From Candidatus Bathyarchaeota archaeon (lineage in GTDB: Archaea; Thermoproteota; Bathyarchaeia; 40CM-2-53-6): a stretch of DNA of 64,000 bases. The first letter of the stretch is position 1. Each line of letters starts with the position of its first letter. Shown here piece by piece: positions 3,067 through 63,091 of the stretch. Under the pieces are notes generated by a model. It was given only the letters and a program-made list of their open reading frames with translations, had not been told where the DNA came from and ran no database searches. The stretch lies in contig VBBQ01000026.1 in NCBI GenBank assembly GCA_005888755.1, positions 20,434 to 84,433 on the forward strand, read 5' to 3'. The translations under genes were made by a program, and so were the position numbers.

Positions 3067-4263
3067 TTGGGAAGCCCCTCCGATCGTTACGATGTAGTTA
3101 CGGTTGGAGCAGGAGTTGCTGGCTGCGAAGCGGCCCTAGAAGCATCTAAGAAAAACGCCCGGGTTCTACTGCTGGAAGAACATCCCCAGGTGGGCTTGCC
3201 GAGTCATTGTTCTGGTGTTGTGAGCCTCAAAGGACTCGAACTCTTGGGACTGGAAGCTCATTCTAGTTTTAGCCAGAAGCTGATTCATGGTGCGAGGTTC
3301 TATCCTCCTCACGGTGAACCGATAGAGGTTCGGAAGAAAGGTCCTGTTGCGCTTATTCTGAACAGGATGAAATTGGACCAGTTTCTGGCGAAGCAGGCTG
3401 TGGCGGCGGGGGCGGAGCTTCGTGCTAAGACTCGGACGTCAAAGTTCGAACGGACCTCCGATGGGGACCTTCTAACCCTCGGAGATGGGTCGAAGGTTCA
3501 GGGTAGAGTGGTTATCGATGCGAGTGGTGCTGGAAGTAGGCTGCCGGAGCAGGCCGGTCTTCAGACGCCTGATTGGGCGCAGATCCTGCCGGGCTTGCAG
3601 TACGAGCTGGTCGAGATGAAGGAGCAGAGTGATCTGGTTGAGCTTTTCTTCGGGTCCAAGAGAGCACCAGGATTCTTCGCATGGAGCATTCCTACTGGGA
3701 AAAATAGTGCAAGAGTTGGTCTCGCTTCGAAGAAGGGTAATGTGAAGAAATTTCTCGATGACCTTGTGAAAGAGCAGTGGCCGAAAGCCATAGTCGATGC
3801 GACGAAGTCAGGATCAGTTCTTGTCGCCGGGCCATTATCGAGATGCTGGTCGCCTGGTTTTATCGTGGTCGGAGATGCGGCTGGACAGGTCAAACAGACG
3901 ACTGGAGGAGGTATTGTTATCGGGGGCTACTGCGGAAAACTAGCCGGAATCGCGGCAGCGTCTTCCGCTGCCCATGTTGGAGTAGACTCTGAGCAGTTTC
4001 TCCGGGACTACGATGCAAAGTGGAGAGAAAAATTCGGGTCTGACCTGCGAAAGATGGGTCTAGCACGGAAATTGTTCGCCAGCCTCTCTGATGAAACACT
4101 TGATCGATTGTTCACGGTTTTGCGGGACAATGTTTCCGAGATCGAGGAGGAAGGAGACATGGATTTCCAGGGGAAAATCATCACTCGCATGCTGAAAAAG
4201 AGAAAAGTCGCGACACTACTCCCGCGCGTTGCAGCAGACGCCGTCAAGGCGATATTCTCCTAA
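3067..4263 (+). CDS. Geranylgeranyl reductase family FAD-dependent oxidoreductase
   Basis: GAGVAG FAD motif, HCSG, APGFFAWSIP, VGDAAGQVKQTTGGGI. Confidence 0.88.
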   Translation: MGSPSDRYDVVTVGAGVAGCEAALEASKKNARVLLLEEHPQVGLPSHCSGVVSLKGLELLGLEAHSSFSQKLIHGARFYPPHGEPIEVRKKGPVALILNRMKLDQFLAKQAVAAGAELRAKTRTSKFERTSDGDLLTLGDGSKVQGRVVIDASGAGSRLPEQAGLQTPDWAQILPGLQYELVEMKEQSDLVELFFGSKRAPGFFAWSIPTGKNSARVGLASKKGNVKKFLDDLVKEQWPKAIVDATKSGSVLVAGPLSRCWSPGFIVVGDAAGQVKQTTGGGIVIGGYCGKLAGIAAASSAAHVGVDSEQFLRDYDAKWREKFGSDLRKMGLARKLFASLSDETLDRLFTVLRDNVSEIEEEGDMDFQGKIITRMLKKRKVATLLPRVAADAVKAIFS

Positions 4264-4657: not shown

Positions 4658-5806
4658 TTGTCTATGAAAATCCTCGTTGTGGGATGCGGCAAAGTAGGGT
4701 CAGAGATCGCTCGGGATCTTGCTGGGTCAAACGAGGTTGATTCTGTGGTTGCGATGGATGCTAGCTCTCAGAACTTGAGGCTCCTGAGGAAACGGGTTCT
4801 GGGGAAGCTCCAGACTGTTAAGCTGAGCATATCGCAAGAGCCTCGTTTTCATGCTCTCCTACGAAAAGTCGATCTTGTCTGTGGTGCTTTGCCGGGAAGG
4901 CTTGGCTTTGATCTGATGACTGAAACGGTCAAGGCTGGAAAGGATACTGTGGACATTTCCTATACTCCGAGGGACGCTTTCCTGCTTCAAGGTCAGGCGA
5001 GGGAGGTTGGTTGTCGGGTTGTGCCTCAGTGTGGTGTGGCGCCGGGTTTCACGAACATGTGTGTTGGTGACGCTTCGAGGAGACTGGATCAGATGAAATC
5101 GGTGGGGATCTTTGTGGGTGGTCTTCCGGAGAAGCCTGAACTTCCTTTGAACTACCGCGTCGTGTTTTCCCTTGAAGATGTAGTGAACGAGTATACTCGA
5201 CCCGCACTAGTCGTCGAGAAGGGCAAGCGCAAGAAAGTTGACCCACTGTCCGGCCTTGGCTACACAAGCTTCCCCGGGGTTGGCCAGTTGGAATATTTTC
5301 TCACTGATGGTCTCGGCTCACTCCCCAGAAGTTATCCGAAAACCAGAGAGATGCACGAGTTTACGCTTAGGTATCCGGGACATGCGGATATGATGCGCAC
5401 GCTTCAGGTCCTCGGCTTCTTTGAACGTAAATCGGTCAAGATTGGCGATGTCGAATTAGAGCCTCGGCAGCTGACGATAGAGCGGCTTCGCGGAGCAATG
5501 TCACACGGATCTCCCGAAGACTTTCTGGCCTTGAGAGTTGAAGTGAAGGGCTTGTCCCGCGGAAAGAAAATTCATATCAGATACCAGCTTCTCGACCATT
5601 ACAACCGACGATCAGGGGTTTCAGCCATGGCTAGGACGACAGCCTACCCGTGCACCTCTGTCGCGCTGCTCATGGGACGCGCAGAGATCAAAGAGACAGG
5701 TATCGTTACTCCGGAAAGCATCGCTCAAGACCCGAAGCTCTTCCGGTTTGTGACAGACCGGCTTTCCGAGCATGGCGTCAAAATGAAAATGAGCACACTG
5801 AGCTAG
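4658..5806 (+). CDS. Saccharopine dehydrogenase / lysine 6-dehydrogenase family
   Basis: GCGKVG Rossmann motif, CGVAPG, FVGGLP, FSLEDVVNEYTRP, TLRYPGH, SAMARTTAYP. Confidence 0.88.
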   Translation: MSMKILVVGCGKVGSEIARDLAGSNEVDSVVAMDASSQNLRLLRKRVLGKLQTVKLSISQEPRFHALLRKVDLVCGALPGRLGFDLMTETVKAGKDTVDISYTPRDAFLLQGQAREVGCRVVPQCGVAPGFTNMCVGDASRRLDQMKSVGIFVGGLPEKPELPLNYRVVFSLEDVVNEYTRPALVVEKGKRKKVDPLSGLGYTSFPGVGQLEYFLTDGLGSLPRSYPKTREMHEFTLRYPGHADMMRTLQVLGFFERKSVKIGDVELEPRQLTIERLRGAMSHGSPEDFLALRVEVKGLSRGKKIHIRYQLLDHYNRRSGVSAMARTTAYPCTSVALLMGRAEIKETGIVTPESIAQDPKLFRFVTDRLSEHGVKMKMSTLS

Positions 5807-8054: not shown

Positions 8055-8747
8055 ATGAAAAAAGAGGACTGGAAAACAGGGGAAATCGAGATGACAAAGA
8101 GCAAGGTGTTTTTCGATGTGGTTGCATCTATCGACGGTTTTGTTGCTCCTGAGGGAATGGATCTGGCCCACGCGAACGACCCGGAGTACAAGCATTGGCT
8201 CAGCCAGTGGATGAGGCTCCAGAACTGGGTGTTCCAGCAGAAGTTCTTCCGCGAGAACCTCAAACAGGGCGAAGGCGGCGAGACTGGCCATGACAACCGG
8301 TTGTTAGAGGAGACGTTCAAACGGACAGGCGTGAGCATCATGGGGAACCAGATGTTCAGCGGAGGAGAACGCTTCTGGCCCGAAGAAGCCCCCTTTCACA
8401 CACCAGTCTATGTCCTGACCCACAAGGTTCGGAAACCCTGGGAACGGCCCGGCGGGACCACTTTCTACTTCGTGAATGATGGAATAGAGAGTGCGCTTGG
8501 ACAGGCGGGGAAAGCCGCGGGGAACAGGGATATTCGAATCGCGGGAGGAGCTAACGTTATTCAGCAGTATCTGAACGCTGGGTTGGTTGATGAGTTTACG
8601 ATCCACTACTCGCCAGTGTTTTTCGGCCAAGGCGTGCAACTGTTTTCTCGAATAACCAAGAACATTAGCGTGAAGATCAAGGGAGCAGTCGCGTCCAAAG
8701 AAGTTACGCATGTTACATTCGAGGTAGAGAAGAGTGCTATGCCCTAG
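8055..8747 (+). CDS. Dihydrofolate reductase / RibD C-terminal family protein
   Basis: ASIDGFVA, IMGNQMF, IAGGANVIQQYLNAGLVDEF, PVFFGQG. Confidence 0.88.
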   Translation: MKKEDWKTGEIEMTKSKVFFDVVASIDGFVAPEGMDLAHANDPEYKHWLSQWMRLQNWVFQQKFFRENLKQGEGGETGHDNRLLEETFKRTGVSIMGNQMFSGGERFWPEEAPFHTPVYVLTHKVRKPWERPGGTTFYFVNDGIESALGQAGKAAGNRDIRIAGGANVIQQYLNAGLVDEFTIHYSPVFFGQGVQLFSRITKNISVKIKGAVASKEVTHVTFEVEKSAMP

Positions 8748-26477: not shown

Positions 26478-27059
26478 CTACCGGACCGTCTCGTAGTGCA
26501 ACATCACTTCGCCATTCTTGAGGGTCTTGACCGAGAGGAGCTTCAGGGTCTGCTGTTTGAACATCGGACCCCAGTAATGGTTCCCGTGTCCGAGGATGAC
26601 CGGCCATACTGCGATTCTGTAGTCATCAGCAAGGCCGCGCTGGATGAACTCGTGGACTAGCGAGGGGCCTGCGTCCACGATGATGTCCTTTCCCGGTTCT
26701 CTTTTCAGGCGTCCGACGATTCGCGTGAGGCTTCCTTTCATGATCCTAGTGTTCTGCCATTCTGTCTTCTTGAGGTAATGAGAGAGGACGATCTTCTGAG
26801 TACGGTCCAGGAAACGCGAGAACTCGAACATGTACTCTGGATCGGACTTCTTCCTCGCCGCTTCGGAGTGGACGGCCACGTGGCCTTCGTAAGACCGTCG
26901 ACCGAACAATATCGTGTCCACCGAATCATACCGGTTGATCCACATGTCGATGAATCCCTCGCTGGGTTCCCTCCGCGGAACGTCGGACCCAGGATACGTC
27001 GGGAACTCGCCGTACCCGTCAAGCGTCATGTACATGTTCACTGTGATCTTCCGAGCCAA
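26478..27059 (-). CDS. Dihydrofolate reductase / RibD C-terminal family protein
   Basis: MTLDGY, ILFGRRSY, PVILGHG, LHY. Confidence 0.88.
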   Translation of the reverse strand: MARKITVNMYMTLDGYGEFPTYPGSDVPRREPSEGFIDMWINRYDSVDTILFGRRSYEGHVAVHSEAARKKSDPEYMFEFSRFLDRTQKIVLSHYLKKTEWQNTRIMKGSLTRIVGRLKREPGKDIIVDAGPSLVHEFIQRGLADDYRIAVWPVILGHGNHYWGPMFKQQTLKLLSVKTLKNGEVMLHYETVR

Positions 27060-39070: not shown

Positions 39071-39337
39071 GAGAGAACGGATTAACCTACTATCAAGATA
39101 GCGTTAAATAACATTCAAGCGCAGACATAACCTACTATCGCTATGGCATGTGGGAGGTGAATGTTTCTGACCAGAACAAACAAGGGCAAAACCGGCGTCC
39201 TCGTGCTCCTATCCGCGAGCCTCGTCGTCTTCTCTCTCGGCTCCCTCTCAGCCTATCCCACGGCCGCCCAGGCTACGTGTAAAAGCGGGCGCGTCAAAAC
39301 TGTTCATCAAAGCTCGAGAGTCTCCAGACTAGCAAAG

Positions 39338-40119
39338 TTGAGAAATGGAAAGTCTTCTGTCGGAAGGCTAGAGATCATCGAATCCGTCATCAAGACATTG
39401 AAACCCTTGGACTATGTTCATGCATTCTGGGAAGGAGGAGCAGCGTCCTTCGGACGAGCTGATGAATGGTCCGACATTGACGCCTATTTGTTAGTTAACG
39501 ACTCGAAGGTCGCGGATGCTTTTCTCGCCGTCGAAAAGGCCCTCGAGTCGGTGTCTCCGATCAAGCAAAATACGTTGTAAGCCAGAACTCTTGGCCCGGC
39601 GTATCTCAAGCCTTCTACAGGCTCAGCGGAGCGAGCGAGTATCTCCTAGTCGACCTTGCAATACTGACGGAGTCTAGCCCGCAGAAGTTCCTAGAACCGG
39701 AAATACACGGAAGAGCAATCTTCCACCTCAATAAGACAGGTATGATCGAAGCGCCCAGACTGGACAAACACGGACTCGACGAAAGGGTGGAACAGAGATT
39801 GGGCGTGCTGAAGGAGAGGTTTGAAATCTTCAACAACTTCGTTCAGAAAGAAATGAACAGAGGAAACAGTCTCGAAGCACTAGAATACTACCGAACGATG
39901 GTGATCGCCTCTCTCGTTGAGGTTCTTCGAATCAAATACTATTCACCTCACTACGATTTTAGAATGCGATACATTAACCACGAACTGCCTCCGGAAATCG
40001 TCAAGAAGCTGGAAAATCTCTGTTTTGTCAGAGGAAAGGAAGAGCTCCAGAGAAAATACCTCGAAGCATTGCAATGGTTCAACAGAGCTATGGTTGAATC
40101 CAGCGCTTCGAAAGAGTAG
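39338..40119 (+). pseudogene. Nucleotidyltransferase-domain protein, frameshifted at A-run near 39567
   Basis: WEGGAASFGRADEWSDID (GS..D.D-like); continues in another frame YVVSQNSWPGVSQAFYRL...RYINHELP. Confidence 0.8.
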
Positions 40120-40256: not shown

Positions 40257-41165
40257 GTGAAGATTGGGCTGTTGGTCTTCATTGCGAACGACCGTGAAAC
40301 GTACCAGAGCCGTTCCTATGATACGATCCGCGCCGTCGCGCAACAGGCCGAGAAGGACGGTTTCGACAGTATCTGGCTACCTGACCATTTCCTCTACCGG
40401 AATCCAGGGGAGCCGACCCGCGGGATCTGGGAGTGCTGGACCATGCTGGCGGCGCTCGCCGAGGCAACACACCGCGTCGAGATCGGCACTCTCGTCACGT
40501 GCAATTCCTTCCGCAATCCCGCGATCCTAGCGAAAATGGCCACCACCGTTGACGAGGTAAGCCATGGCCGCTTGATACTAGGTATCGGGGCCGGATGGAA
40601 CGAACCGGAGTATCAGGCACTCGGATTGCCCTTCGACCATCGGGTAGGCCGCTTAGAGGAAGCCTTGCAGATAATCAAACCGTTACTCCGCGACGGCCAC
40701 GTCGATTTCTCGGGACAGTATTATCAAGCGCGAAACTGCGAGATCGCACCCCGCGGCCCGCGGCCCGAAGGACCGCCGCTGATGGTGGGATGCGAACAAA
40801 AAAGTCCACGCATGCTCAAGCTCACCGCAAAATACGCGGATCTCTGGAACACGGGGTACATGGGCAAGCCGGAAACAATAGCCGAGCCCTTCGCCAAAAT
40901 CGAAGACGCGTGCCGCAAAACCGGGCGCGATCCGAAAACGCTTGGAGTCACAGCGTTCATCGGCCTCTGGTTCCCTGACCTCCAAACAAAGAAACCCAAA
41001 TTCTTCGACAATCCACTGACAGGCTCGACGGAGGAGATCGCAGCAGCAATGCGCGGGTACGCAGAACTCAACGTGCAACACATCATGTTTCAGTGCGAGC
41101 CTTACGTGCCTCAAGCGATTCGGCGGCTGACCGAGGCACTCCGACTCTATCGGAGAACGGCTTGA
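40257..41165 (+). CDS. LLM-class flavin/F420-dependent oxidoreductase
   Basis: GFDSIWLPDH, RNPAILAKMATTVD, GIGAGWNEPEY. Confidence 0.93.
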   Translation: MKIGLLVFIANDRETYQSRSYDTIRAVAQQAEKDGFDSIWLPDHFLYRNPGEPTRGIWECWTMLAALAEATHRVEIGTLVTCNSFRNPAILAKMATTVDEVSHGRLILGIGAGWNEPEYQALGLPFDHRVGRLEEALQIIKPLLRDGHVDFSGQYYQARNCEIAPRGPRPEGPPLMVGCEQKSPRMLKLTAKYADLWNTGYMGKPETIAEPFAKIEDACRKTGRDPKTLGVTAFIGLWFPDLQTKKPKFFDNPLTGSTEEIAAAMRGYAELNVQHIMFQCEPYVPQAIRRLTEALRLYRRTA

Positions 41166-41382
41166 CCCTACGCCATTTCAACGTCTGTGGCGCCATCCCT
41201 CATCTTCCTAATCTCCATGGTGCTTTCGAAACCTACGCCCTCGGTCTTCCTCCTCGACGCGTCCATTCCAGCAGCTGAGGTCTCAGCGACCTGTCCTCGT
41301 GTCGCATGAGTCAGGATACCCAAGACTTTCGCAACTTTGTAAACCCGTAAGTTGAAATACTCTTAAGACCAAACATCACGCA

Positions 41383-42054
41383 ATGAGCATTCCACTCCTA
41401 GATCCACCGGCAGGCAACCCAACCTTCGGATCTACCAAGCGCGAAATCCTATTAATTCTCAAACGCGAAGGCCAGTCAGATCTCCAAACTCTCGCCGAAC
41501 ACTTACGAATCTCAAAAATGGCGGTTCACAAACACGCTCAGGAACTAGAAAAGAGGGGACTGATCGAACGCATACCGGTCCGAGGTACAACAGGCAGGCC
41601 CCGCCTCGCCCTGCGACTCGCCCCCAGCGCAACCTCACTCTTCCCAAGGGCCTACGCGGGAATAACATGCGCCGCCCTCGAATACATCGAGGAGAAGCTT
41701 GGACGAAAAGCTGTTGAAGAAGCTCTCCGTCGCCGACAAGCCGAAACACTCACCACCTACCGCGATCAGGTCAACGCAGAAACCCTCGCCCAACGTGTCC
41801 ACCAGCTCGCCGGACTCCGCGATCGCGAAGGATACATGGCCGAAGACCACCAATCAGGCCCCGCAAAGTTCGAGATCCTAGAGCACAATTGTCCGATACT
41901 CGCAGTTGCCGAGAACTACTGGGAGGCATGCACAGTCGAGAACGAACTGTTCCGAAAAGTATTGGATGCGAAAGTTGAGACAACACACCGTGTCGTTGCA
42001 GGCGGCAATGTCTGCCGTTTCCTAGTCACACCGAAACAGAGGACCCCTGGATGA
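41383..42054 (+). CDS. SufR-like HTH regulator with Cys motif
   Basis: N-terminal HTH (ISKMAVHKH, GRP); EHNCPI...EAC..E..LF...GGNVCRF. Confidence 0.82.
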   Translation: MSIPLLDPPAGNPTFGSTKREILLILKREGQSDLQTLAEHLRISKMAVHKHAQELEKRGLIERIPVRGTTGRPRLALRLAPSATSLFPRAYAGITCAALEYIEEKLGRKAVEEALRRRQAETLTTYRDQVNAETLAQRVHQLAGLRDREGYMAEDHQSGPAKFEILEHNCPILAVAENYWEACTVENELFRKVLDAKVETTHRVVAGGNVCRFLVTPKQRTPG

Positions 42055-42770
42055 AACGGGTCTCGCTAATCACTGGTGCTGGACGCGGCCTCGGCCGAAT
42101 ACTCGCCACATTCCTCGCAGGTCAAGGATGCGACATCGTCATAACAGCTCGAACCATCACAGAGCTTCACAACGTTTCTCAATCTCTCGAAAGCCTCGGC
42201 ACACGAGTCGCCGCAATTCCTGGTGACATCACAAACCCCGTACACAGGACTCGCTTGCTGCAACAAACGAGAGCCATGGGTGGCCTCAGCCTCCTCGTGA
42301 ACAACGCCTCTGATCTCGGGGAAACCCCACGTCCCGAACTCGCTCGAGCCTCTCTCACGCGATTCCGGACAACACTCGAAACAAACCTAGTCGCCCCACT
42401 CGCGCTCATACAAGAAGCACTCCCTCAACTCGAACAGATGAGGGGACTCGTAGTCAACATCTCCAGCGACGCAAGCCTGGGAGGTTACGAGCGATGGGGA
42501 ATCTACGGTTCAACCAAGGCTGCCCTCGACCTCGCCTCGAAGACTCTTTCAGCAGAACTCAAACCACGCCACATTTCCGTCGTGAGCGTCGACCCCGGTG
42601 ACATGCGGACCCGGATGCATCAGGACGCGTTTCCCGGCGAGAACATATCCGACCGCCCCCTCCCAGAAGTAACGCTTCCATTCTGGGCATGGCTCGTCAG
42701 CCAAGACCCCGAACGCATCACCGGGATGCGCTACCAGGCACAAGGAACACTCTGGGAGATCCCAGCTTGA
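42051..42770 (+). CDS. Short-chain dehydrogenase/reductase
   Basis: TGAGRGLG, NNAS, NISS, YGSTK, PGDMRT. Confidence 0.93.
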   Translation: MKRVSLITGAGRGLGRILATFLAGQGCDIVITARTITELHNVSQSLESLGTRVAAIPGDITNPVHRTRLLQQTRAMGGLSLLVNNASDLGETPRPELARASLTRFRTTLETNLVAPLALIQEALPQLEQMRGLVVNISSDASLGGYERWGIYGSTKAALDLASKTLSAELKPRHISVVSVDPGDMRTRMHQDAFPGENISDRPLPEVTLPFWAWLVSQDPERITGMRYQAQGTLWEIPA

Positions 42771-43807
42771 ACCGATCCGAACTCATGTTCGACCGTCCCA
42801 CCGATCTCTTCGCCAGCGCACCCCCGGAGATGCGTGGACATGACCGAGATGACATCCGCCTAATGGTCTCGACACCCGACGGCGATATACACTACACGTT
42901 CACTGATCTGCCTGGGCTCCTAGAACCTGGAGACATGCTAGTTGTCAACGAGAGCGCGACCTTGCCCGCAAGCCTCCCAGCCGCAAGCCGTCTAGGCAAC
43001 ATCAGACTCAACCTCTCAACACGATTTGCAGACGACCTCTGGCTCGCGGAACCAAGATGGAGTCCATCAAGGCCCGGCCCGCTACCCCTCAAGGAACACG
43101 AGATGATTCAGATCGGCGAGGCGAAAGCCCTCCTGCTCCAACAGTATCCTGGAATCCCGAGACTCTGGTTCGTCCGCCTAGACACTCCAGCTAGCTGTCT
43201 CATGGCCAAGTACGGCGAGCCCATTCACTACAATTACGCTCCCGCCTATCCCATGTCAAACTATCAAACCATCTTCTCCCGCTTCCCGGGAAGTGTCGAG
43301 ATGCCAAGTGCCGCACGGCCCATCACAGCACATGTCCGCGACATGCTTCGCTCACGTGGCATCGGCATTGTTGGAGTAATCCTTCACACCGGTGTCTCGA
43401 GCCTAGAGATTGAAGATGAAACAGTGGAGCACCAAGCTCTCTACCCAGAGGTCTTCCGGGTCCCCGAAGCAAGCGCAACCGCTGTCAACGCAACGCACGC
43501 CCGAGGCGGCCGCGTCATCGCCGTCGGAACCACAGTCGTCCGTGCTCTCGAAACCGCCTGGACACCAAACGGCCTTCGCGCCATCTCTGGAGCAACCGGC
43601 CTCTACATTCACCCCGGAAACAGCATCCATGCTATCGATGGACTCCTCACAGGATTGCATGATCCTGTAACGAGCCATCTTGCGATGCTCAGCGCGATCG
43701 CGGGCCTCGACCGGGTCAAGAAAGCATACGGTGAGGCCATCCGGAACCGGTACCTCTGGCATGAATTCGGCGACAGCCATCTACTGTGGCGACAGGACGC
43801 AAACTAA
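42767..43807 (+). CDS. QueA-like protein (divergent subfamily)
   Basis: GDMLVVNES, YQTIFS..PGSVEMPSAAR, IAVGTTVVRALET, YLWHEFGDSHL; TTG overlaps SDR stop. Confidence 0.85.
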   Translation: MNRSELMFDRPTDLFASAPPEMRGHDRDDIRLMVSTPDGDIHYTFTDLPGLLEPGDMLVVNESATLPASLPAASRLGNIRLNLSTRFADDLWLAEPRWSPSRPGPLPLKEHEMIQIGEAKALLLQQYPGIPRLWFVRLDTPASCLMAKYGEPIHYNYAPAYPMSNYQTIFSRFPGSVEMPSAARPITAHVRDMLRSRGIGIVGVILHTGVSSLEIEDETVEHQALYPEVFRVPEASATAVNATHARGGRVIAVGTTVVRALETAWTPNGLRAISGATGLYIHPGNSIHAIDGLLTGLHDPVTSHLAMLSAIAGLDRVKKAYGEAIRNRYLWHEFGDSHLLWRQDAN

Positions 43808-43904
43808 GAATTCTCTTTCTGTAACAATTTTCTCGTTTTTCATCTTTCCAGTGTTCCCTCGCGCCAATCTGAAAAGGAGCGGAAAACGTTCACAAGCCAT
43901 CTTT

Positions 43905-44540
43905 CTAGCGGAGCCGTTTGTCTTGTTCCTCCTCTAGAGAGGAGACTCGGACGTCATAGAGGAACTCGCGCAGCTCGTCTTCATGTTTCGGATCATCGGG
44001 TAGAGGCGACTCCTTCAGCGCTAAGTCTAGTTCATCGATGAATTTCGGGATATCCTTCGGCGAGGTCCCAGTTATGGGCCGATATTCGATGACGCCTTCG
44101 CGCAGTAGTTTGCAGCCCATTATGATTGTTCGTGCAATCGTGTTGCATCGTTTTGCGCTGTCGTCGCGTTCGCTGACGATATACTTTTCATAATTGTGCT
44201 CAGCAAGACCCTTTATGCTATGATAGGCTCTCTTACTGTAGTTCATCGCTGCAAGGCGGTGCAGCTCCGATAGACGGGACCAGTCTTTGACGACTATCGG
44301 ACTCATGACTCCACTCAGATAGTTCCAGTTGTTCCTCAAAACTTGATTTACTATGCGACCAAGCTCGTGATACTGTCTATCAGTTGGGCCGGAGTATTCA
44401 ACCCTAGATTGATCGTCAAACTCGCCGCGAAGGATCGACTTGGTTGGAGCGAGGACTGCAACGAAAAGGTCCAGGTCTGATCCTGGATGATTCATCTGCC
44501 ACATGTGCGATCCTACGTTCGTTACGAATAGTTCCTTCAT
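43905..44540 (-). CDS. Pol-beta superfamily nucleotidyltransferase (RlaP/YcgL-like)
   Basis: VGSHMWQMNHPGSDLDL (GS..SD.D), C-terminal LPDDP. Confidence 0.75.
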   Translation of the reverse strand: MKELFVTNVGSHMWQMNHPGSDLDLFVAVLAPTKSILRGEFDDQSRVEYSGPTDRQYHELGRIVNQVLRNNWNYLSGVMSPIVVKDWSRLSELHRLAAMNYSKRAYHSIKGLAEHNYEKYIVSERDDSAKRCNTIARTIIMGCKLLREGVIEYRPITGTSPKDIPKFIDELDLALKESPLPDDPKHEDELREFLYDVRVSSLEEEQDKRLR

Positions 44541-45810: not shown

Positions 45811-48800
45811 CTATGGTTTCCAGCCAATTGCTCTGAACTGCGACGTGCCAGTGGGAAAAGTCGTGAGTTTCGTTAGTGTTCCGTTGTTGTAGGTCAGTAT
45901 GGTGCCGCTTCCGCCCGCGATGTAAGCTGTGCCTGATGGGGACCAGCTGATACCGTAGAGCCAGCTCGAAGTTATAGTCGGAAGCATGGTCAATGTTGAC
46001 CCGTTGTAAGTGAGCACCATTCCGTTGTCACCGGCCAAAAGTGCGAGGGTGCCTGTTGGGTTGAAGGAGATCGCCCGGATAGCGGCGTTGGGTGAGATGA
46101 TGCTCGTGTTGATCGTGGCAACCTGTGTCCCATCGAACTGTAACAGCGTCCGGTTGAGCCCGCCTATCAAAGCGTACGCGCTATTCGGATTCCACGCCGC
46201 CGCGTCCAAGTCGAACGTTGTGCCGGTCGCGAACGAGCGGACTGTTGTCCCATCATATGTCAACGCCAACCCGACCTTGCCTATCAAGAGCGCATAACTA
46301 CCGCTCGGATTCCAGCTGATCGAAAGAATGGTTGATGACGTGTTAGGAATTGTCGTGACCGTGACGCCATCGTACTTGAACAGGATACCCGACGTGCCAC
46401 CTACCAGCGCAAAGGACCCGTCAGGCTTCCAGGAAACAGTCCAGAAATTGAACCCGGTCGAGATACCGGTTGACACAGTCGTAAGCGATGTTCCATCGTA
46501 CTTCAGAAGAACCGCAAAGTCTCCCGATATCAGCGCGTAGGACCCGTCAGGCTTCCAAGCAACCGACCGCAAGGCAGTCGTTACCGGCTGGCCAATCAGC
46601 GTCAGCGTGCCATTCGGGTAAAGCCTGGAAACCTTTCCGTCGTTGGTGACGACAAGAGCATAGGCCGATTGCGGAGACGCACCGACAACCGTTACAGTTT
46701 CGCTACCGCTACTGCCAAGGTGCGACGAATCTCCTGCATAGCTAGAGGTTATCGTGTGGAACCCGGTTATACTAGGCGTGTAGCTGACCGAGCAACTCGC
46801 AACACCAACGGTCCCTGAAGCTGTCAGTGAGCAGCTGGGCTGGGAGAATACGCCTGTCGAGTTCGAAGCGAAACTGACAGAACCGCTAGGAGTAACACTG
46901 CCTCCACTTGAGGAGTCGGTGATCGTAGCCGAACAATTGGAGGTCTGGTTTACAACAACCGGGCTAGTGCATACGACCACGCTTGAAGTAGTACGCTGAT
47001 TGATCATCACGTTCGCTCCGGCGCTGGTGCTCGCACTGTGAGCAGTGTCGCCGCCGTATCCGCCTGCGATTGTAGCAGTGCCTGATGCTGTTGCGGTGAA
47101 GGTAACAGAACAACTGCCCGAAACTAGAGCGCAGGTCGCGGAGCTGAAAGATCCCGGAGCTCCGGTCTCTGTGAAATTGATGCTACCCGACGGAGTGATC
47201 GTTGTTCCCGGTGACGTGTCAGAGACTGTCACAGTACAAGATGAAGCCTGGTTTACAAAAACTGGACTCGAACAGACCAAAGCTGTAGAAGTCGTCCGTG
47301 GGTCTACCGTGATACTTGCGGCCGCGCTAGTGCTCCCGCCATGCGACGAGTCGCCACCATACGTGCCAGTAACTAACGCATTGCCACTTGCAGCCGGAGT
47401 AAACGTGACCGAGCAGCTACCTGATGATAGAGAGCAAGAGGTCGAGCTGAACGAACCAGCAGGACCTGTCTCAGTGAACCTGACTATTCCCGTTGGAGTA
47501 GTTGAGCTGGCGTTAGTGTCTGTCACCGTCGCCGTGCACAATGATCCCTGGTTGACCAGAACTGGGCTGGCGCAGGTAACTGCCGTTGTTGTGTTATGAA
47601 GTGGCACAGTGGTCACAGTTACGCTGAACGCTGGACTCGTGCTAGCAGCATGAGCAGAGTCACCGCCGTACGCACCGGTGATCAGGGCGGAACCTGCTGC
47701 AGTAGGAGTGAAAATAACCGAGCAACTACCAGACACTAGAGTGCATGTAGTCGAGCTGAAAGAGCCGGCAGGACCAGTCTCGGCAAATGTGACAGTACCC
47801 GTCGGGGTGGTTGGGGAGATCGTCGATGTGTCACTCACCGTCGCGGTGCAAGTGGAAGCCTGGTTCACGATCACAGAGGAAGGAGAGCAATTAACAACGG
47901 TTGCAGTCGTGTGCTGGCCCACGTGAACCTGGACAACGACCAAGTGCAGTAGCGAGCCACTGGTCGCCTTGATCGTCACGTTGTAAACGCCTGAGGCCTG
48001 GTTAGACGGTACCTGAACGGAGAGAACTGAACTCTTCGTCCCGTTTACGGTGAGACTTGGATTGTTCGGGTTCAGAGTCGCTTTAGGTCCAGCAGGGCTC
48101 ACGGATACCGTGGTGGATATTCCTCCTTGGAATGTGTAGAGGCTCTGGAACAGGATCTGGGAGGTCCCCGAGGATCCTGGGGAGATATTCAAGGTAACAG
48201 GGTTGGCCGTCATGTTAAAGTCCGGCACTCGCACTGTCACATTCAACGCGTGGACCAGAGACCCGCTGGTCCCTGTCACGGTCGCAATGTAGATCCCGGT
48301 TGGCACCGTCTTGCTCGCAACGATTTTTAGATTGTCGTTGACCGTTTGGCCGACGTTCAACGTCACGGACGGGTTTTGCATCGAGACAGCCAATCCTTGG
48401 GGAGAGACAAAGGCCGTTAGAGCGACTGTTCCCTTGAATCCTCCAAGGCCTGTGACAGCAATCGCGGACTGGCTGTTCTGGCCCCGCTGAACCGTCAGAA
48501 GGTACGGCTTAGCAACGAGTTTGAAGTCGAACGTCGACACCGTGATACTGTTCGAGACAGAAGCGGTGTGACCCGCAGAATCACTTGTCGTCAGGGTAAC
48601 GGCATAGGATCCGCCTGCCGAATAGACATGAGTCACCGGGTTTCCTGTTGCCGAGCTTCCGTCTCCGAAAGTCCAGTTGAACATGTAGGGAGAAGAGCCT
48701 CCCGACGCCGTGCCAGTGAAAGTTACACTCTGGCCGGGAACGGGGGAAGACGGACTGAATGCAAAGCTGGTGGAGAGTGGATTGGTGGTGAAGAATTCGG

Positions 48801-49773
48801 CCATAGGAGTAGCTGAGGCGTCGTTAGTTGCCAAGCTAGCGAGGTTCCAGTTGACTTCTACAGTCTTTGTGAACGAGTAGTGGTTGTAGAGGTTACTCGT
48901 GACAAAACTAGTCTTTGTCCCTGGTCCTGCCCAAACTGCATAGACGCAGTCCTCAGAACTACCATTGAGGGGGCAGTACCCATTGCCCTCGTCGAAGACG
49001 AGGAACAGTGCAGAGCGTTGTGTTGTGAAGGTCCGGCTGTTGAGAATATTCGGCACGAGACCGCTGAGATAGTTGTCTCCTAACGGGATCGAGGTGGCAC
49101 AGATGCCGGTGACGCCGTGCATGTTGTTGCAATTATTCGGGGTGAGCCACATGAAATTCGGCGCCGCCGCCGAATTCAAGTCGTTAATCAATACACAATC
49201 TGTGACAGAGCAAGTTGTCGGGTTTGCCATGACGAGATTAGAACATCGGGCCGGATTACTTGTGATGTCGGTGAAGAAGACGAAGGGGTTGTGTTCTGGA
49301 GTATATGGCTCATTGTAGCCAGTGTCGCAACCGCTTGAAGGTGCCTGGTTCTCCATGTAGCCTTTCCAGGTTAATCCTGCGGCTTCAAACCGGTCCACCA
49401 AGTTCGCGTTTGCTGATGCTTGGCAGGGGTAGGCGACACAGCCGTTGATGTCTCCTCCGAGAGTGGCTATGTAGTCAGCCTGGCTGAAGTGGGAAACTCC
49501 GAGATACTGGGAACCTATCCCGTAGCTGTTGGCGAGGCCGGCAGCGTAGGGGTCTCCGTTTGTGCTCAAGCATGGCGGTGGACTCCGAGCGCAGATGTTG
49601 TTGATGCCATGGTCCTCCATCATAATGATCACGACATGATCGAAGTAGGTTCCGCTGGAAGGTGAAGCAGACACGGGTCTTATGCCCCCACCAACCATTG
49701 CTGTGCCTAGAACCGAGAGGAATAAACCAGCCAGAAGGATCGCAGCCTTTCCTATGTGAATGCGATTGTTCAT
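45811..49773 (-). CDS. Large secreted phosphoesterase (acid phosphatase-like) with PKD, Ig-like repeats and C-terminal beta-propeller
   Basis: FDHVVIIMMEDH, HNPF, TPNNCNNMH, YNHYS; WTFGDG PKD; four TxTxVxC...YGGDSAH Ig-like repeats; about 6 SVAWKPDGSYALI blades. Confidence 0.9.
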   Translation of the reverse strand: MNNRIHIGKAAILLAGLFLSVLGTAMVGGGIRPVSASPSSGTYFDHVVIIMMEDHGINNICARSPPPCLSTNGDPYAAGLANSYGIGSQYLGVSHFSQADYIATLGGDINGCVAYPCQASANANLVDRFEAAGLTWKGYMENQAPSSGCDTGYNEPYTPEHNPFVFFTDITSNPARCSNLVMANPTTCSVTDCVLINDLNSAAAPNFMWLTPNNCNNMHGVTGICATSIPLGDNYLSGLVPNILNSRTFTTQRSALFLVFDEGNGYCPLNGSSEDCVYAVWAGPGTKTSFVTSNLYNHYSFTKTVEVNWNLASLATNDASATPMAEFFTTNPLSTSFAFSPSSPVPGQSVTFTGTASGGSSPYMFNWTFGDGSSATGNPVTHVYSAGGSYAVTLTTSDSAGHTASVSNSITVSTFDFKLVAKPYLLTVQRGQNSQSAIAVTGLGGFKGTVALTAFVSPQGLAVSMQNPSVTLNVGQTVNDNLKIVASKTVPTGIYIATVTGTSGSLVHALNVTVRVPDFNMTANPVTLNISPGSSGTSQILFQSLYTFQGGISTTVSVSPAGPKATLNPNNPSLTVNGTKSSVLSVQVPSNQASGVYNVTIKATSGSLLHLVVVQVHVGQHTTATVVNCSPSSVIVNQASTCTATVSDTSTISPTTPTGTVTFAETGPAGSFSSTTCTLVSGSCSVIFTPTAAGSALITGAYGGDSAHAASTSPAFSVTVTTVPLHNTTTAVTCASPVLVNQGSLCTATVTDTNASSTTPTGIVRFTETGPAGSFSSTSCSLSSGSCSVTFTPAASGNALVTGTYGGDSSHGGSTSAAASITVDPRTTSTALVCSSPVFVNQASSCTVTVSDTSPGTTITPSGSINFTETGAPGSFSSATCALVSGSCSVTFTATASGTATIAGGYGGDTAHSASTSAGANVMINQRTTSSVVVCTSPVVVNQTSNCSATITDSSSGGSVTPSGSVSFASNSTGVFSQPSCSLTASGTVGVASCSVSYTPSITGFHTITSSYAGDSSHLGSSGSETVTVVGASPQSAYALVVTNDGKVSRLYPNGTLTLIGQPVTTALRSVAWKPDGSYALISGDFAVLLKYDGTSLTTVSTGISTGFNFWTVSWKPDGSFALVGGTSGILFKYDGVTVTTIPNTSSTILSISWNPSGSYALLIGKVGLALTYDGTTVRSFATGTTFDLDAAAWNPNSAYALIGGLNRTLLQFDGTQVATINTSIISPNAAIRAISFNPTGTLALLAGDNGMVLTYNGSTLTMLPTITSSWLYGISWSPSGTAYIAGGSGTILTYNNGTLTKLTTFPTGTSQFRAIGWKP

Positions 49774-54821: not shown

Positions 54822-56099
54822 CTAGCTGTCGCGCGCAATAACTCGGGTCTTAACGATCTGTTGCAGCTCTCTCAAACTTAGTCCAGTTTCATTGGATATT
54901 CTTCGAAGGTCTTCGTACTCCACTTTGCCTCCTTGCGCATGACCCGTCGTTGTAAGCGCCCTCTTTACTTTGACCTGAAACTTCCTTCCTACGACTTCCA
55001 GCTCCAAGGTGCCACTGGACCTTCTGCTGATGTGTCTAGAAACCGGCATTTCTCGTACTCCAAGAGTCCCGGTTTCTTCCATCAGCAACTCAGCTAGTCG
55101 TTCGCTCTTTGCCTTGTCTGTTATGACAGAGATCAGTTGGCCGGGCCGGTTCTTCTTCATGAACAACGGAGTGATTGATACGTCTCGGGCTCCTGCTTCC
55201 ATCAGTCTCTCAACTGCCCGTCCAATAACTTCGCCGGAAACGTCGTCCAGGTTTGTCTCCAGGACGACTACTTCATCGTGTGAATGTTCAGTCTCAAAGA
55301 GCTCGCCCACGGTGAGACGGAGAACATTAGCCACCTGGTCAAGATCCTTCGATCCTGCGCCGTATCCGATCTTGTGAGGCGTAATTATCGGAACCTCCCC
55401 TGTTTCACTGCCTACCAGACTTACTGCGATTGCACCGCCTGTAGGTGTCGTCAGTTCGAATTGGATATTGCTTGTTTTCATTGGAAACTTGTGGGATCTT
55501 AGGATCTCGGCGACAGCGGGCGCTGGATTCGGATAGGCTCGCCCAGAGAACTCCGTTACTCCGGTTCCGACGCCAATCGGTCCGCACCACCATCTAGCTC
55601 CAGATAGTTCGAGTTCATCTGCGAGGTATGCGACGCCGAGAATGTCCACGAGAGTGTCTGCAGACCCGAGCTCATGAAGCTCTACCTCTTTCGCGGAGTG
55701 GCCGTGGACCCGGGACTCAGCTGAGGATAGAGTATCCAAGACGGATTTGACAAAAGACGTTCCCCAATCAGAGAGACCCAATGCTTTCCCGCACCTTAGA
55801 GCAGATGATTGAAGATCGCTGGCCTTTCTCTTCGAAACCTTCTCCTCAGATCTTACTTCGACCAGCTGTCCCCTGATTTCTCCTCGCTCGACCATGCTCG
55901 TCTTGACATGAACATGACTCGCGCCCGTAAGATTCTCTTCCACTGCCCTGGCGACTTTATCCAGACTCTTCGGGCTCCCACCAAGATCGATAAGAGCGCC
56001 TAGGAATTTGTCTCCAGAAGCTCCTGAAGAACTGGCGTCGATTATCACCACTCTTCCGGAAGCTCTCATGCTGACCTGTCCAATTGTTCGCGTGGGCAC
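54822..56099 (-). CDS. larC: Nickel-pincer cofactor nickel insertase LarC
   Basis: GASGDKFLGALIDLG, HELGSADTLVDI, TPTG, GYGAG..NVLR, ETNLDD, MKKNRPG, ETGTLGVR. Confidence 0.93.
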   Translation of the reverse strand: MPTRTIGQVSMRASGRVVIIDASSSGASGDKFLGALIDLGGSPKSLDKVARAVEENLTGASHVHVKTSMVERGEIRGQLVEVRSEEKVSKRKASDLQSSALRCGKALGLSDWGTSFVKSVLDTLSSAESRVHGHSAKEVELHELGSADTLVDILGVAYLADELELSGARWWCGPIGVGTGVTEFSGRAYPNPAPAVAEILRSHKFPMKTSNIQFELTTPTGGAIAVSLVGSETGEVPIITPHKIGYGAGSKDLDQVANVLRLTVGELFETEHSHDEVVVLETNLDDVSGEVIGRAVERLMEAGARDVSITPLFMKKNRPGQLISVITDKAKSERLAELLMEETGTLGVREMPVSRHISRRSSGTLELEVVGRKFQVKVKRALTTTGHAQGGKVEYEDLRRISNETGLSLRELQQIVKTRVIARDS

Positions 56100-59209: not shown

Positions 59210-60055
59210 CTACGCCTTCTTCTGTTTCTCTGAGGCTCCGCGGAACAGTTCCATGAACTTCTCTGATGCGACCTTTCTCGGCGAACCGCTGATGATTCCT
59301 TCGTAGTTTGAGAAGGCTGACTCTATCTTGATGCCTGCCGGTGTTATTTCGTATTCTCTAAACCTCTTGTCATGATCGCTTCCCCGCATTTTCAGAATCA
59401 CAAGGGCTTTGCGTAGCGATGACTCGATCTCTACGGGTTTGAGTGCGAGAATACAATCGACTAGGAAGCTGAGCCCTACATCGGTTACGCTGAAGGCTCC
59501 TCCGCTTATCTGAGGTGACTCCCACAGCAAAATGGAACTGACTCCATGGGTCTTGAGATACCTGACGATCCGGTAGGCTTCCATTCTCATGTCATCTCTC
59601 TTCACAAACATCTCTAGATGACTGAGCGAGTCGATGACGAGCCGTCGAGGCTGAATATCCCGAAGGACATCGTCCAGCAAACTACCGTCTCCGGACTCTA
59701 ACACGAGACTTGGGGATGTGCAGATTACGCGGAACTTGTCCTCCTCTTCCATTTTACGGAGGTCCCACCCGAAGTTCTTCGCATCCCTATAGATCTGGTC
59801 AGGGAGCTCTTCGAAGGTTACATAGATCCCAGGCTCTCCACGCTTCACTCCGTTGACAAGGTATTGCAGAGCCAGGGTTGTCTTTCCCGTGCCTGCGCTT
59901 CCCGCGAGCATGACAGCGTCACCCGGCATGAACCCTCCTCTAAGCATCTCGTCAAGCTCGACAATTCCAGTCTTTACCCGACCACCTTCCGCTATTCTAC
60001 TGGAAAACAATTGGTCGAACTCCGAGGATCCGGTCTTGGGTCGTGGTGTGCTCAT
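59210..60055 (-). CDS. Single-domain KaiC/RAD55-like RecA-superfamily ATPase
   Basis: GSAGTGKT, FEE, VIDSLS, LSFLVD, KMRGSDHD. Confidence 0.92.
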   Translation of the reverse strand: MSTPRPKTGSSEFDQLFSSRIAEGGRVKTGIVELDEMLRGGFMPGDAVMLAGSAGTGKTTLALQYLVNGVKRGEPGIYVTFEELPDQIYRDAKNFGWDLRKMEEEDKFRVICTSPSLVLESGDGSLLDDVLRDIQPRRLVIDSLSHLEMFVKRDDMRMEAYRIVRYLKTHGVSSILLWESPQISGGAFSVTDVGLSFLVDCILALKPVEIESSLRKALVILKMRGSDHDKRFREYEITPAGIKIESAFSNYEGIISGSPRKVASEKFMELFRGASEKQKKA

Positions 60056-62032: not shown

Positions 62033-63091
62033 CTATGCTTTTTCCCAGGCGCAAAAGTCGCTGGGCGCTTCCAGGTGCCTGTTGATCGCGACCTCGGCAA
62101 TCGCTTCAGAATACTTGGCCATCTGTCCAACGTCCCAGACGATCGACCGTAATCCGACAGCAAGGTTGACCTCTTTGACGCTGCGCATGACGCTCTCCGT
62201 CAGCTGCCTCTCAACCTGCTCGCAGCTCGCGACCCGTTCGATACAATCGTTCGACTTTTTCAGATCGCCCTTCATCAGTGCGTTGAACGAGTCCTCGATC
62301 AGCAAGCGCACCTTATCGCTGTAGTCGAGAATACCCTTGGTAAGCTTCGGATCCACACTCTTAGCGTTCCCCTTCAGCCTCAACGCCTCCTGAGCGATGT
62401 GCGAGGCGAGATCGCCCATTTGCTCGAGACTCTTCGCGATAACCCTGTTTCCTACAACGTGCATCGGCCCGTCGATGCCGACCTCTTTCGCCACCCGTCG
62501 ATCCAGAACCGCCAGAAGCAACTGTCGGATAATCATCCAGTAGATACGATCAGCTTCCTCCTCCATGTGCAAAACCTCGTCCGCTAGATTCGGTCTTCCC
62601 TCCACGACCGCTTTCACAGCGGTCTCCAGCATCGAGCTGAGAATAATCTGCAACCGCCGCATCAAGCCGTAGATCGGGAACTTTGTCGGATCAACAAAAC
62701 TCTGCAATGTAACCGACTTCAAACTCTGCTCCACAATCCCTAACCCAGTCAACCGCCGGCTAACCGCTCGAACCTCTTCTAGGTGACGCTGGGAGAGCTC
62801 TTTCTTTGCAATAATCTGGACCGTATCATGCCCTGTTAGATAGTTCGCGGTGATGATCCTGGTGAGAAGGTTCGGAGCATCACAAATGTCCGCGTTAATG
62901 ACATACCGGAAGTTTTCCCGTTCACGGGTTAATCCTGGATAGACGGTTATTCCACCGTCAGACTCTCGTCTGAAAGTAACAATGTCCCCCTGCTTGAGAC
63001 TAACCTGTTCGACCCAGTCCTTAGGTAACGAGACAATCAGGGTGGAGTAACCGACTTTCTGGACCTTACGAGCTTCCATCATTTGAGACAA
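62033..63091 (-). CDS. phoU: Archaeal AbrB-PhoU phosphate uptake regulator
   Basis: RKVQKVGYSTLIVSLPKDW AbrB domain, two PhoU repeats (EEEADRIYW). Confidence 0.9.
   Translation of the reverse strand: MSQMMEARKVQKVGYSTLIVSLPKDWVEQVSLKQGDIVTFRRESDGGITVYPGLTRERENFRYVINADICDAPNLLTRIITANYLTGHDTVQIIAKKELSQRHLEEVRAVSRRLTGLGIVEQSLKSVTLQSFVDPTKFPIYGLMRRLQIILSSMLETAVKAVVEGRPNLADEVLHMEEEADRIYWMIIRQLLLAVLDRRVAKEVGIDGPMHVVGNRVIAKSLEQMGDLASHIAQEALRLKGNAKSVDPKLTKGILDYSDKVRLLIEDSFNALMKGDLKKSNDCIERVASCEQVERQLTESVMRSVKEVNLAVGLRSIVWDVGQMAKYSEAIAEVAINRHLEAPSDFCAWEKA

Follow-up and report, generated by a model that had tools for sequence, protein, structure and literature searches.

We analyzed a 64,000-nucleotide stretch of contig VBBQ01000026.1 (positions 20,434 to 84,433; assembly GCA_005888755.1, Candidatus Bathyarchaeota archaeon), hereafter referred to as the window, in which three adjacent genes encode a SufR-like regulator, a short-chain dehydrogenase/reductase (SDR), and a protein related to QueA, the tRNA ribosyltransferase-isomerase of the queuosine pathway. 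The list of open reading frames (ORFs) and a reading of the sequence confirmed that the three genes are co-directional on the + strand, and the following features were found at the locus:

41322..41364, + strand: candidate promoter/operator region with an inverted repeat, a TTTGTnAA element, and a TATA-like box
41383..42054, + strand: SufR-like regulator of 223 aa (TIGR02702; Pfam MarR/HTH_24)
42051..42770, + strand: classical SDR of 239 aa (adh_short, PF00106)
42767..43807, + strand: QueA-like protein of 346 aa (from TTG 42767) or 340 aa (from ATG 42785) (PF02547)
43827..43849, + strand: T-rich tract AATTTTCTCGTTTTTCATCTTTC, a possible archaeal oligo-T terminator noted upon reading the sequence

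The ATG of the SDR gene overlaps the TGA of the SufR-like gene as ATGA (42051-42054), and the TTG start of the QueA-like gene at 42767 overlaps the SDR stop codon as TTGA. Shine-Dalgarno-like sequences were located 7 nt 5′ of ATG 42051 (AGGA) and 8 nt 5′ of TTG 42767 (GGGAG); judging from these junctions, the SDR gene is translationally coupled to both neighbors. The longest ORF of the QueA-like gene starts at ATG 42689, with homology beginning about 30 residues in (the Pfam match covers residues 31-366), and public gene calls for this gene in identical metagenome contigs start at either TTG 42767 (346 aa) or ATG 42785 (340 aa). The tract AATTTTCTCGTTTTTCATCTTTC begins 20 nt past the QueA-like stop codon and possibly closes the operon as an oligo-T terminator; a scan for bacterial-type terminators gave no match at 43827..43849. 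Gene overlaps of this kind are ordinary by themselves, and their significance comes from the recurrence of the gene order in other loci: the order SufR-like/SDR/QueA-like was also found in nine other archaeal loci. The preliminary description of the locus as a coupled three-gene operon with ATGA and TTGA junctions was thus confirmed. Moreover, an identical SDR protein was present on at least 21 public contigs, and those shown came from ENA and JGI metagenome assemblies, with the gene order unchanged.

The QueA-like protein matched the Pfam family PF02547 (Queuosine_synth) with 234.1 bits, over positions 3-322 of the 322 in the profile, and aligned over its full length with the QueA structures 1VKY, 1WDI, and 1YY3, with about 30-32% identity (phmmer against 1VKY, E = 1.8e-40, residues 3-334). 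It failed the QueA equivalog test, however, with 184.6 bits for NF001140 and 146.9 bits for TIGR00113, the curated NCBIfam cut-offs being 324 and 267.45 bits, respectively; E. coli QueA, included as a control, scored 513.8 and 567.8 bits, above both values. In species-representative genomes (one genome per species), a scan with the QueA-like protein retrieved at least 589 relatives, of which the best 80 loci were analyzed. Nine relatives from nine lineages were all under both QueA cut-offs and, together with the window protein, gave 156-187 bits for NF001140 and 121-150 bits for TIGR00113.

When aligned with the T. maritima and T. thermophilus QueA, the window protein showed PIHYNY in place of PLPPYI, SVEMPSAARPI in place of SVAAPTAGLHF, LHTGVSSL in place of LHVGxGTF, TGLHDP in place of TNFHLP, and LWHEFGD in place of RFFSFGD, while GTT..RALE was unchanged; all the replacements listed in the preliminary description, and the kept motif, were visible in this alignment. 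To place these changes in the family, 77 relatives were aligned with the QueA proteins from E. coli, B. subtilis, T. maritima, and T. thermophilus, and 103 columns were invariant in these four. The relatives retained the canonical residue in 48 of the 103 columns; 17 were replaced by another residue conserved in at least 80% of the 77 relatives, and 38 were variable. In the numbering from ATG 42785, the 17 class-specific residues are T59, I147, R/H148, Y149, F164, E172, M173, S175, R178, P179, S206, G290, H298, L302, L324, W325, and E327, and the canonical residues lost in the family include the His of TAGLHF, the Asn of NFH, and the Arg of RFF. The retained blocks are YQT, LHxG, E222, GTTxxRxLE, H292, Y315, Y323 (Y-x7-Y), and the final GD. 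The median identity was 32% between the paralogs and canonical QueA, 51% among the paralogs, and 47% among the canonical proteins, and in a neighbor-joining tree (no bootstrap), the relatives formed one clade on a long branch. A Foldseek search with the model of the protein retrieved only QueA structures (E = 5e-14 to 2e-12), with TM-scores that were low (0.29-0.37) because the model is poor. In agreement, the likeness to QueA (EC 2.4.99.17) extends to PF02547 membership, length, and two-domain layout, and the QueA structures were the only significant PDB fold matches. Collectively, these data indicate that the QueA-like protein belongs to a paralog family distinct from the tRNA preQ1(34) ribosyltransferase-isomerase, and that the divergence from QueA is a property of the whole family and not a quirk of one sequence.

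Further differences from QueA concern gene neighborhood and distribution: the QueA-like gene is never adjacent to tgt, it is paired with an SDR gene, it has redox-type regulators beside it, and the family is present in archaea and in actinobacteria lacking tgt. The 80 loci come from Bathyarchaeota, Thermoplasmata, Anaerolineae and other Chloroflexota, Trueperaceae (Deinococcota), Thermoanaerobaculia and other Acidobacteriota, Eremiobacterota, Dormibacteria, and Bacillota, along with many Actinomycetota, including Streptomyces, Amycolatopsis, Streptosporangium, Nonomuraea, and Rubrobacteraceae. Two of them (L056 and L068) have no sequence 5′ of the QueA-like gene, and in 77 of the 78 remaining loci, from two domains and more than eight phyla, an SDR homolog was found immediately 5′ of it; this gene-neighborhood analysis of QueA homologs is one of the checks that had been proposed in the preliminary description. 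The exception was L038, where the SDR gene lies 1.1 kb upstream of the QueA-like gene. The conserved unit is, therefore, the SDR plus the QueA-like protein, with a regulator that varies by lineage, and the module is mostly bacterial and no archaeal peculiarity.

The SDR of the window matched adh_short with 134.9 bits in Pfam, and every NCBIfam match was under its cut-off. The motif TGxxxGxG (T8-G9-x3-G13-x-G15), the N112-S139-Y152-K156 tetrad, and R34 were invariant in 51 module-linked orthologs, and R34, placed after strand 2, suggests that the enzyme is probably NADP(H)-dependent. The nearest solved structures were uncharacterized YciK-like SDRs.

Among the matches listed, the genome locus closest to the window operon belonged to a Bathyarchaeota metagenome-assembled genome (MAG), with 71-76% identity over the three genes, followed by those of Thermoplasmata MAGs, with contigs of 100-176 kb; outside the three genes, no synteny was found between the flanks of the window operon and those of the Bathyarchaeota or Thermoplasmata loci. 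The Bathyarchaeota MAG VBBN01 contains two copies of the operon (L001 and L011) on different contigs, with 70-76% identity to the window, and this corresponds to either a duplication or strain mixing in the bin. In the neighbor-joining tree, the archaeal copies fell into two groups nested among Trueperaceae, Anaerolineae, and Thermoanaerobaculia. The segment 42001-44000, which holds the SDR and QueA-like genes, has a GC content of 0.573 and a GC skew of -0.165, with about 0.52 GC for the window overall. This nesting within a bacterial radiation and the raised local GC would fit with acquisition of the module by archaea through inter-domain gene transfer.

The preliminary description had also proposed that the enzyme acts on a substrate different from that of QueA, and had noted the absence of tgt and que genes around it. 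Pfam scans of ORFs of at least 150 aa and tblastn with E. coli Tgt detected no Tgt or que gene in the window, which agrees with that remark and is weak evidence by itself because 64 kb represents a small fraction of the genome. In E. coli, queA adjoins tgt; no Tgt homolog was found within 6 kb in any of the 80 loci. Moreover, no preQ1, SAM (S-adenosylmethionine), or other Rfam riboswitch family was detected in the window or in 11 of the loci. COG counts for 1134 bacteria are tabulated in Supplementary Data S4 of PMC10570037. In this table, one queA (COG0809) and zero tgt (COG0343) are given, with the label 'No-Q', for S. coelicolor, S. griseus, Amycolatopsis mediterranei, Streptosporangium roseum, Nonomuraea, Catenulispora, and Geodermatophilus, and likewise for Kutzneria, Nocardiopsis, Modestobacter, Actinoplanes, Stackebrandtia, and Sulfobacillus. 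Of these, S. griseus and Streptosporangium roseum have no que gene besides queA. In the same table, Rubrobacter, Meiothermus, Herpetosiphon, and Luteitalea have tgt and two COG0809 copies. Since these genera coincide with the genera of our locus set, the orphan and extra COG0809 copies are very probably the QueA-like paralog, and the presence of a QueA homolog in actinobacteria lacking tgt suggests that this family is not a queuosine enzyme. Two COG0809 copies with one tgt are also given for the five Chlorobi genomes listed there (5 of 5), where the second copy may belong to this family or to another QueA-like clade.

These observations bear on the explanation that the window protein is an ordinary QueA that takes part in queuosine synthesis of the bacterial type, for which tgt and the remaining que genes would lie elsewhere in the genome. 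We regard this as highly improbable and as already largely refuted: although the PF02547 match is strong, the public name of the protein is S-adenosylmethionine:tRNA ribosyltransferase-isomerase, and just 64 kb of the genome was inspected, the family stands at about half of the curated equivalog cut-offs and has 17 invariant residues changed, its gene is never beside tgt, and it is the sole COG0809 member in tgt-less actinobacteria and a second copy in queuosine-proficient species. In addition, queuosine synthesis as it is known has no step for an SDR, the strictly conserved partner here. The module is very probably unconnected with queuosine, the canonical QueA role being essentially excluded, and the proposal of a different substrate agrees with the lack of Tgt near the 80 loci, the single queA of the tgt-less actinobacteria (PMC10570037), and the 17 class-specific replacements.

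A related locus is found in a model organism. In literature tables on S. coelicolor, SCO1804 is named 'QueA', SCO1803 appears as an SDR in a listing of mutated genes, and SCO1801 and SCO1802 are an unnamed NarL-type regulator and a kinase. The order of SCO1801-SCO1804 is that of the Streptomyces loci of our set, with the kinase and the regulator divergent from the SDR and QueA-like genes, and SCO1804 is the only COG0809 member of this tgt-less genome. By inference from other Streptomyces genomes, SCO1803-SCO1804 are probably the orthologs of the SDR and QueA-like genes of the window. The locus differs from the window in carrying a two-component system instead of the SufR-like regulator, and its four genes are uncharacterized. 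No functional study was found in a literature search that covered QueA paralogs, the QueA-SDR pair, SCO1801-1804, and a place for QueA in carbocycle biosynthesis or in SoxR regulons.

In about one third of the loci, the regulator beside the pair is of redox or iron-sulfur type. The SufR-like protein of the window, with Pfam matches to MarR and HTH_24, gave 128.1 bits with TIGR02702 over the whole model (positions 1-208 of 208), under the cut-off of 178.8 bits, and the bacterial module-linked homolog from locus L078 gave 118.3 bits. The protein is composed of an N-terminal winged helix-turn-helix and a C-terminal domain that contains C170, C183, and C211 (C-X12-C-X27-C). These three cysteines were conserved in 10 of the 11 homologs linked to the module and did not vary among 24 close homologs; a further cysteine, C96, was conserved in close homologs only. 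A C-X12-C cysteine pair is also found in cyanobacterial SufR. The three-cysteine domain is a probable Fe-S sensor. In the structural model, the winged helix-turn-helix at the N-terminus precedes a C-terminal domain of alpha/beta type, and the PDB matches were to winged helix-turn-helix domains only, leaving the sensor domain without a solved relative. Relatives of this regulator are named 'suf operon transcriptional repressor' or 'predicted ArsR family transcriptional regulator' in JGI, and a protein with 76% identity carries the NCBI label Candidatus Bathyarchaeota. About 11 loci have a SufR-like gene: the operon begins with it in the window and in nine archaeal loci, and two bacterial loci carry it 3′ of the QueA-like gene. 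In the window, its neighbors are a luciferase-like (LLM) oxidoreductase gene on the 5′ side and the SDR and QueA-like genes on the 3′ side, and not suf genes, none of which was found among the ORFs of the window scanned with Pfam.

The region upstream of the SufR-like gene contains a 16-nt imperfect inverted repeat (41322-41337 and 41349-41364), within which falls the TTTGTnAA element (41336-41343), and a TATA-like box, TTGAAATA (41352-41359), placed about 24 nt 5′ of the ATG. The TTTGTnAA element and two A's of the TATA-like box were invariant in nine aligned archaeal loci, with the former 10-14 nt before the latter. This arrangement suggests that 41322-41364 may serve as the operator of the SufR-like protein and that transcription would be leaderless. 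The closest known system is SufR, the [4Fe-4S] repressor of sufBCDS in cyanobacteria and actinobacteria: the window protein resembles it in the full-length match to the model, in the winged helix-turn-helix and C-terminal domain, and in being encoded by the first gene of the presumed target operon. It differs in having three conserved cysteines and not four, a score under the cut-off, SDR and QueA-like neighbors, and an archaeal TATA-type promoter with TTTGTnAA.

In bacteria, the link to redox control has another form. A SoxR gene was found in 10 bacterial loci, divergent from the SDR gene and 54-168 bp 5′ of it. With 185.9 bits against an equivalog cut-off of 116.9 and an invariant CIGCGCLSLxxC motif, the protein in these loci is a bona fide SoxR. 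In all ten loci, the promoter just 5′ of the SDR gene follows the patterns TTGACTTGAAGTTAACTTCAA and TTGACTTGAAGTTAACTTCAACTAnnAGTATG, and a dyad lies between its -35 and -10 elements. A strict version of the box pattern gave exactly one match in each of 11 loci, always just 5′ of the SDR gene. Soxbox-like promoters were also found 5′ of the SDR gene in six more loci without an adjacent soxR, for a total of 16 of the 80 loci, and this suggests that the module in those six may be regulated in trans by a SoxR encoded elsewhere. The six loci are L026, L029, L044, L069, L064, and L076, with the dyads at about 5180-5300 and, as an example, TTGACCTCAAGTAATGTAGAGG in three Amycolatopsis loci. The enteric soxbox consensus, CCTCAAG-N4-CTTGAGG, was absent from the SoxR-linked loci, and the reading of the intergenic regions showed a variant box instead; accordingly, the enteric box CCTCAAGTTAACTTGAGG differs from the box of the bacterial relatives, TTGAAGTTAACTTCAA. 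The window itself contains neither SoxR nor a soxbox, and its promoter is of TATA type.

These promoters resemble those of SoxR regulons in non-enteric bacteria (S. coelicolor ecaA-D, SCO2478, and SCO0320ext), in which a dyad box also lies between a TTGAC -35 and a -10 element, and an NAD(P)H oxidoreductase is a typical member. Such regulons have been reported to consist of a small number of oxidoreductases, monooxygenases, and transporters acting on redox-active metabolites, and no report of a QueA-like gene in a SoxR regulon was found in the literature. The preliminary proposal of Fe-S or redox control was supported, both by the conservation of C170, C183, and C211 and by the presence of the bacterial module behind SoxR with a soxbox-type promoter. 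The commonest bacterial regulator was of a different class: in 36 loci, the module has as neighbors a histidine kinase with a GAF domain and a response regulator of the LuxR/NarL type. A cysteine-rich GAF domain was considered as a general redox sensor of this kinase and rejected, since the GAF cysteines were conserved in only 14 of 37. In about 11 loci, no SufR-like, SoxR, or kinase gene was found, and ORF calling there was noisy on the high-GC DNA.

To our knowledge, no enzyme other than QueA employs SAM to donate a ribosyl group, and a single QueA reaction, at one tRNA position, is known. With this background, and with moderate confidence, we favor the reading that the pair is a stress-regulated module of an SDR and a QueA-fold enzyme, in which ribosyl transfer and isomerization from SAM onto a nucleophile other than preQ1 would be combined with an SDR step and induced by redox or iron stress; it follows the general lines of the preliminary description, which as a whole is supported. 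The retained blocks (YQT, LHxG, E222, GTTxxRxLE, H292, Y315, Y323, and GD) would be the scaffold for SAM binding, ribose opening by a sulfonium ylide, and carbocyclization, and the 17 class-specific positions would form a rebuilt acceptor site. The QueA-like enzyme may thus transfer and isomerize the ribosyl group of SAM, with adenine and methionine released; the accepting nucleophile would not be preQ1 and is most likely a small molecule. The SDR could then oxidize or reduce the cyclopentane-diol or epoxide product, or else prepare the acceptor beforehand. In archaea, the SufR-like repressor would leave the TTTGTnAA/TATA operator once its probable Fe-S cluster is damaged; in many bacteria, SoxR would drive the module via the soxbox promoter, and in many others, this function may correspond to the kinase and NarL-type pair beside the module. 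On the basis of the SufR-like and SoxR/soxbox regulators found next to it, the module is probably induced by redox-cycling or by oxidative and iron stress.

The acceptor could instead be a nucleic acid. The QueA-like enzyme would then add the SAM-derived cyclopentane to an amine-bearing nucleoside other than preQ1-34, in tRNA, rRNA, or DNA, and the SDR would tailor the ring in place of QueG/QueH. The full-length alignment with QueA, with both domains kept, including the small beta-barrel domain of unassigned role in QueA, is in line with this explanation, and so are the 48 of 103 canonical-invariant residues retained and the broad distribution of the family, whose position in actinobacteria is syntenic and housekeeping-like, outside biosynthetic clusters. 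However, S. griseus and Streptosporangium roseum have a QueA homolog and lack tgt and queC/D/E/F, so that no 7-deazaguanine acceptor is available there, and MnmE/MnmG, which would supply aminomethyl-uridine, are reported to be absent from Actinobacteria. Furthermore, among the small-molecule oxidoreductases, monooxygenases, and transporters reported for non-enteric SoxR regulons, there are no RNA-modifying enzymes, and no RNA-binding or tRNA-modification gene was found as a conserved neighbor of the module. The isoelectric point (pI) gave no signal: pI and charge were uninformative as a proxy for tRNA binding, with values of 5.1-8.7 for canonical QueAs and 5.1-10.6 for the paralogs. Taking both sides together, we consider a nucleic-acid acceptor unlikely.

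In a third explanation, the QueA fold has been recruited away from ribosyl donation by SAM and might isomerize or cleave a different compound with a ribosyl or adenosyl group; the redox-stress response would then depend mainly on the SDR, for example, as a quinone or carbonyl reductase. We find this quite unlikely. The residues kept are the most conserved QueA blocks (YQT, LHxG, GTTxxRxLE, H292, Y-x7-Y, and GD), suggesting that the core chemistry is retained, even though several residues invariant in canonical QueA are missing, the model is poor in the motif loops, and SAM binding is only predicted. Chemistry of the QueA type is enabled by the sulfonium group, which weighs against a substrate other than SAM. 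In Streptomyces and Pseudomonas, SoxR typically controls NAD(P)H oxidoreductases, and this would suit an SDR acting as the main effector; the strict one-to-one pairing and the translational coupling across two domains point rather to a single pathway.

Several points weigh against the proposed transfer of the SAM ribosyl group by a stress-induced module. The SAM binding, the acceptor, and the product of the QueA-like enzyme are predictions from sequence, and the acceptor might be a nucleic acid, although a small molecule is more likely. The AlphaFold model of the protein is poor (pLDDT of 62, with motif loops under 50), so the class-specific residues could not be placed in a pocket, and no ligand-bound QueA structure exists that would allow the assignment of conserved residues to SAM or tRNA binding. 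On the regulatory side, the SufR-like protein scores under the curated SufR value, and its Fe-S binding is only predicted; SoxR-type promoters were found in just 16 of the 80 loci and SufR-like genes in about 11; and the kinase and NarL-type pair, the commonest neighbor with 36 loci, has no demonstrated redox input. Finally, the absence of tgt was taken from a published COG table of related strains, and not from the genomes of the loci or that of the window.

The remaining gene content of the window fits with an archaeal genome, and includes a LarC-type nickel-insertion protein (54822-56099, - strand), a single-domain KaiC-like ATPase (59210-60055, - strand), an AbrB/MazE-PhoU fusion (62033-63091, - strand), and a geranylgeranyl-reductase-like flavoprotein (3067-4263, + strand). 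Together with the Bathyarchaeota and Thermoplasmata relatives and the TATA-type promoter, this gene content makes an archaeal (Bathyarchaeia-like) origin probable, on indirect evidence, and the organism is probably a soil archaeon; rRNA, tRNA, and ribosomal marker genes are absent from the window. Two RibD_C-domain paralogs are encoded at 8055-8747 and 26478-27059. Directly 5′ of the operon, an F420-dependent LLM oxidoreductase is encoded at 40257-41165 (+ strand; TIGR03560, 226 bits against a cut-off of 231.4), and the Dormibacteria locus L078 likewise has a luciferase-like gene, at a distance of about 0.6 kb from its module; a functional tie between this oxidoreductase and the module is possible but not general. 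On the other side, a nucleotidyltransferase of the RlaP family (RNA-repair-associated, polymerase-beta-type; 43905-44540, - strand) is convergent on the QueA-like gene, and a gene of this family was found beside the operon in the metagenome copies and not in other loci.

Further upstream, the ORF at 39161-39580 (+ strand, 139 aa) encodes a hydrophobic N-terminus followed by the nucleotidyltransferase-like stretch GGAASFGRADEWSDIDAY, and the adjoining ORF at 39742-40119 (+ strand, 125 aa) contains an R-x6-H stretch (RIKYYSPH). Neither had a Pfam match, and the same split was seen in independent metagenome copies. From their sequences, the two ORFs resemble either a nucleotidyltransferase in two parts or a minimal pair of the nucleotidyltransferase/HEPN type. 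The ORF at 45811-49773 (- strand, 1320 aa) has an N-terminal hydrophobic segment that is a probable signal peptide, a phosphoesterase domain, PKD and Big_3_5 repeats, and C-terminal beta-propeller-like repeats, and its product is probably a surface or secreted phosphoesterase.

Returning to the SDR and QueA-like genes, the locus combines a known fold with a substrate that is probably new; the obligatory partner and the regulatory contexts are new as well. More tentatively, the module could represent a second use of the sulfonium-ylide chemistry of QueA outside tRNA, in which a widespread pair of enzymes would turn the ribose of SAM into a carbocyclic, cyclopentane-type small-molecule product or adduct, be induced via SoxR, SufR-like, or two-component sensors, and have reached soil archaea by inter-domain transfer. 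Candidate roles for such a carbocyclic product are a redox-active or protective metabolite, or a conjugate that neutralizes a redox-cycling compound. The current names, a queuosine enzyme and a suf repressor, can mislead reconstructions of the queuosine pathway and of Fe-S regulons in actinobacteria, Chloroflexota, and archaea. The family is present in at least 589 species-representative genomes, model streptomycetes included, and S. coelicolor SCO1801-SCO1804 make the question tractable in genetically tractable hosts. If the proposed function is true, this large paralog family, with its rebuilt acceptor site and obligatory reductase, would be the first evidence of QueA chemistry used for another purpose, and it would tie SAM chemistry to the redox and iron-sulfur stress responses.

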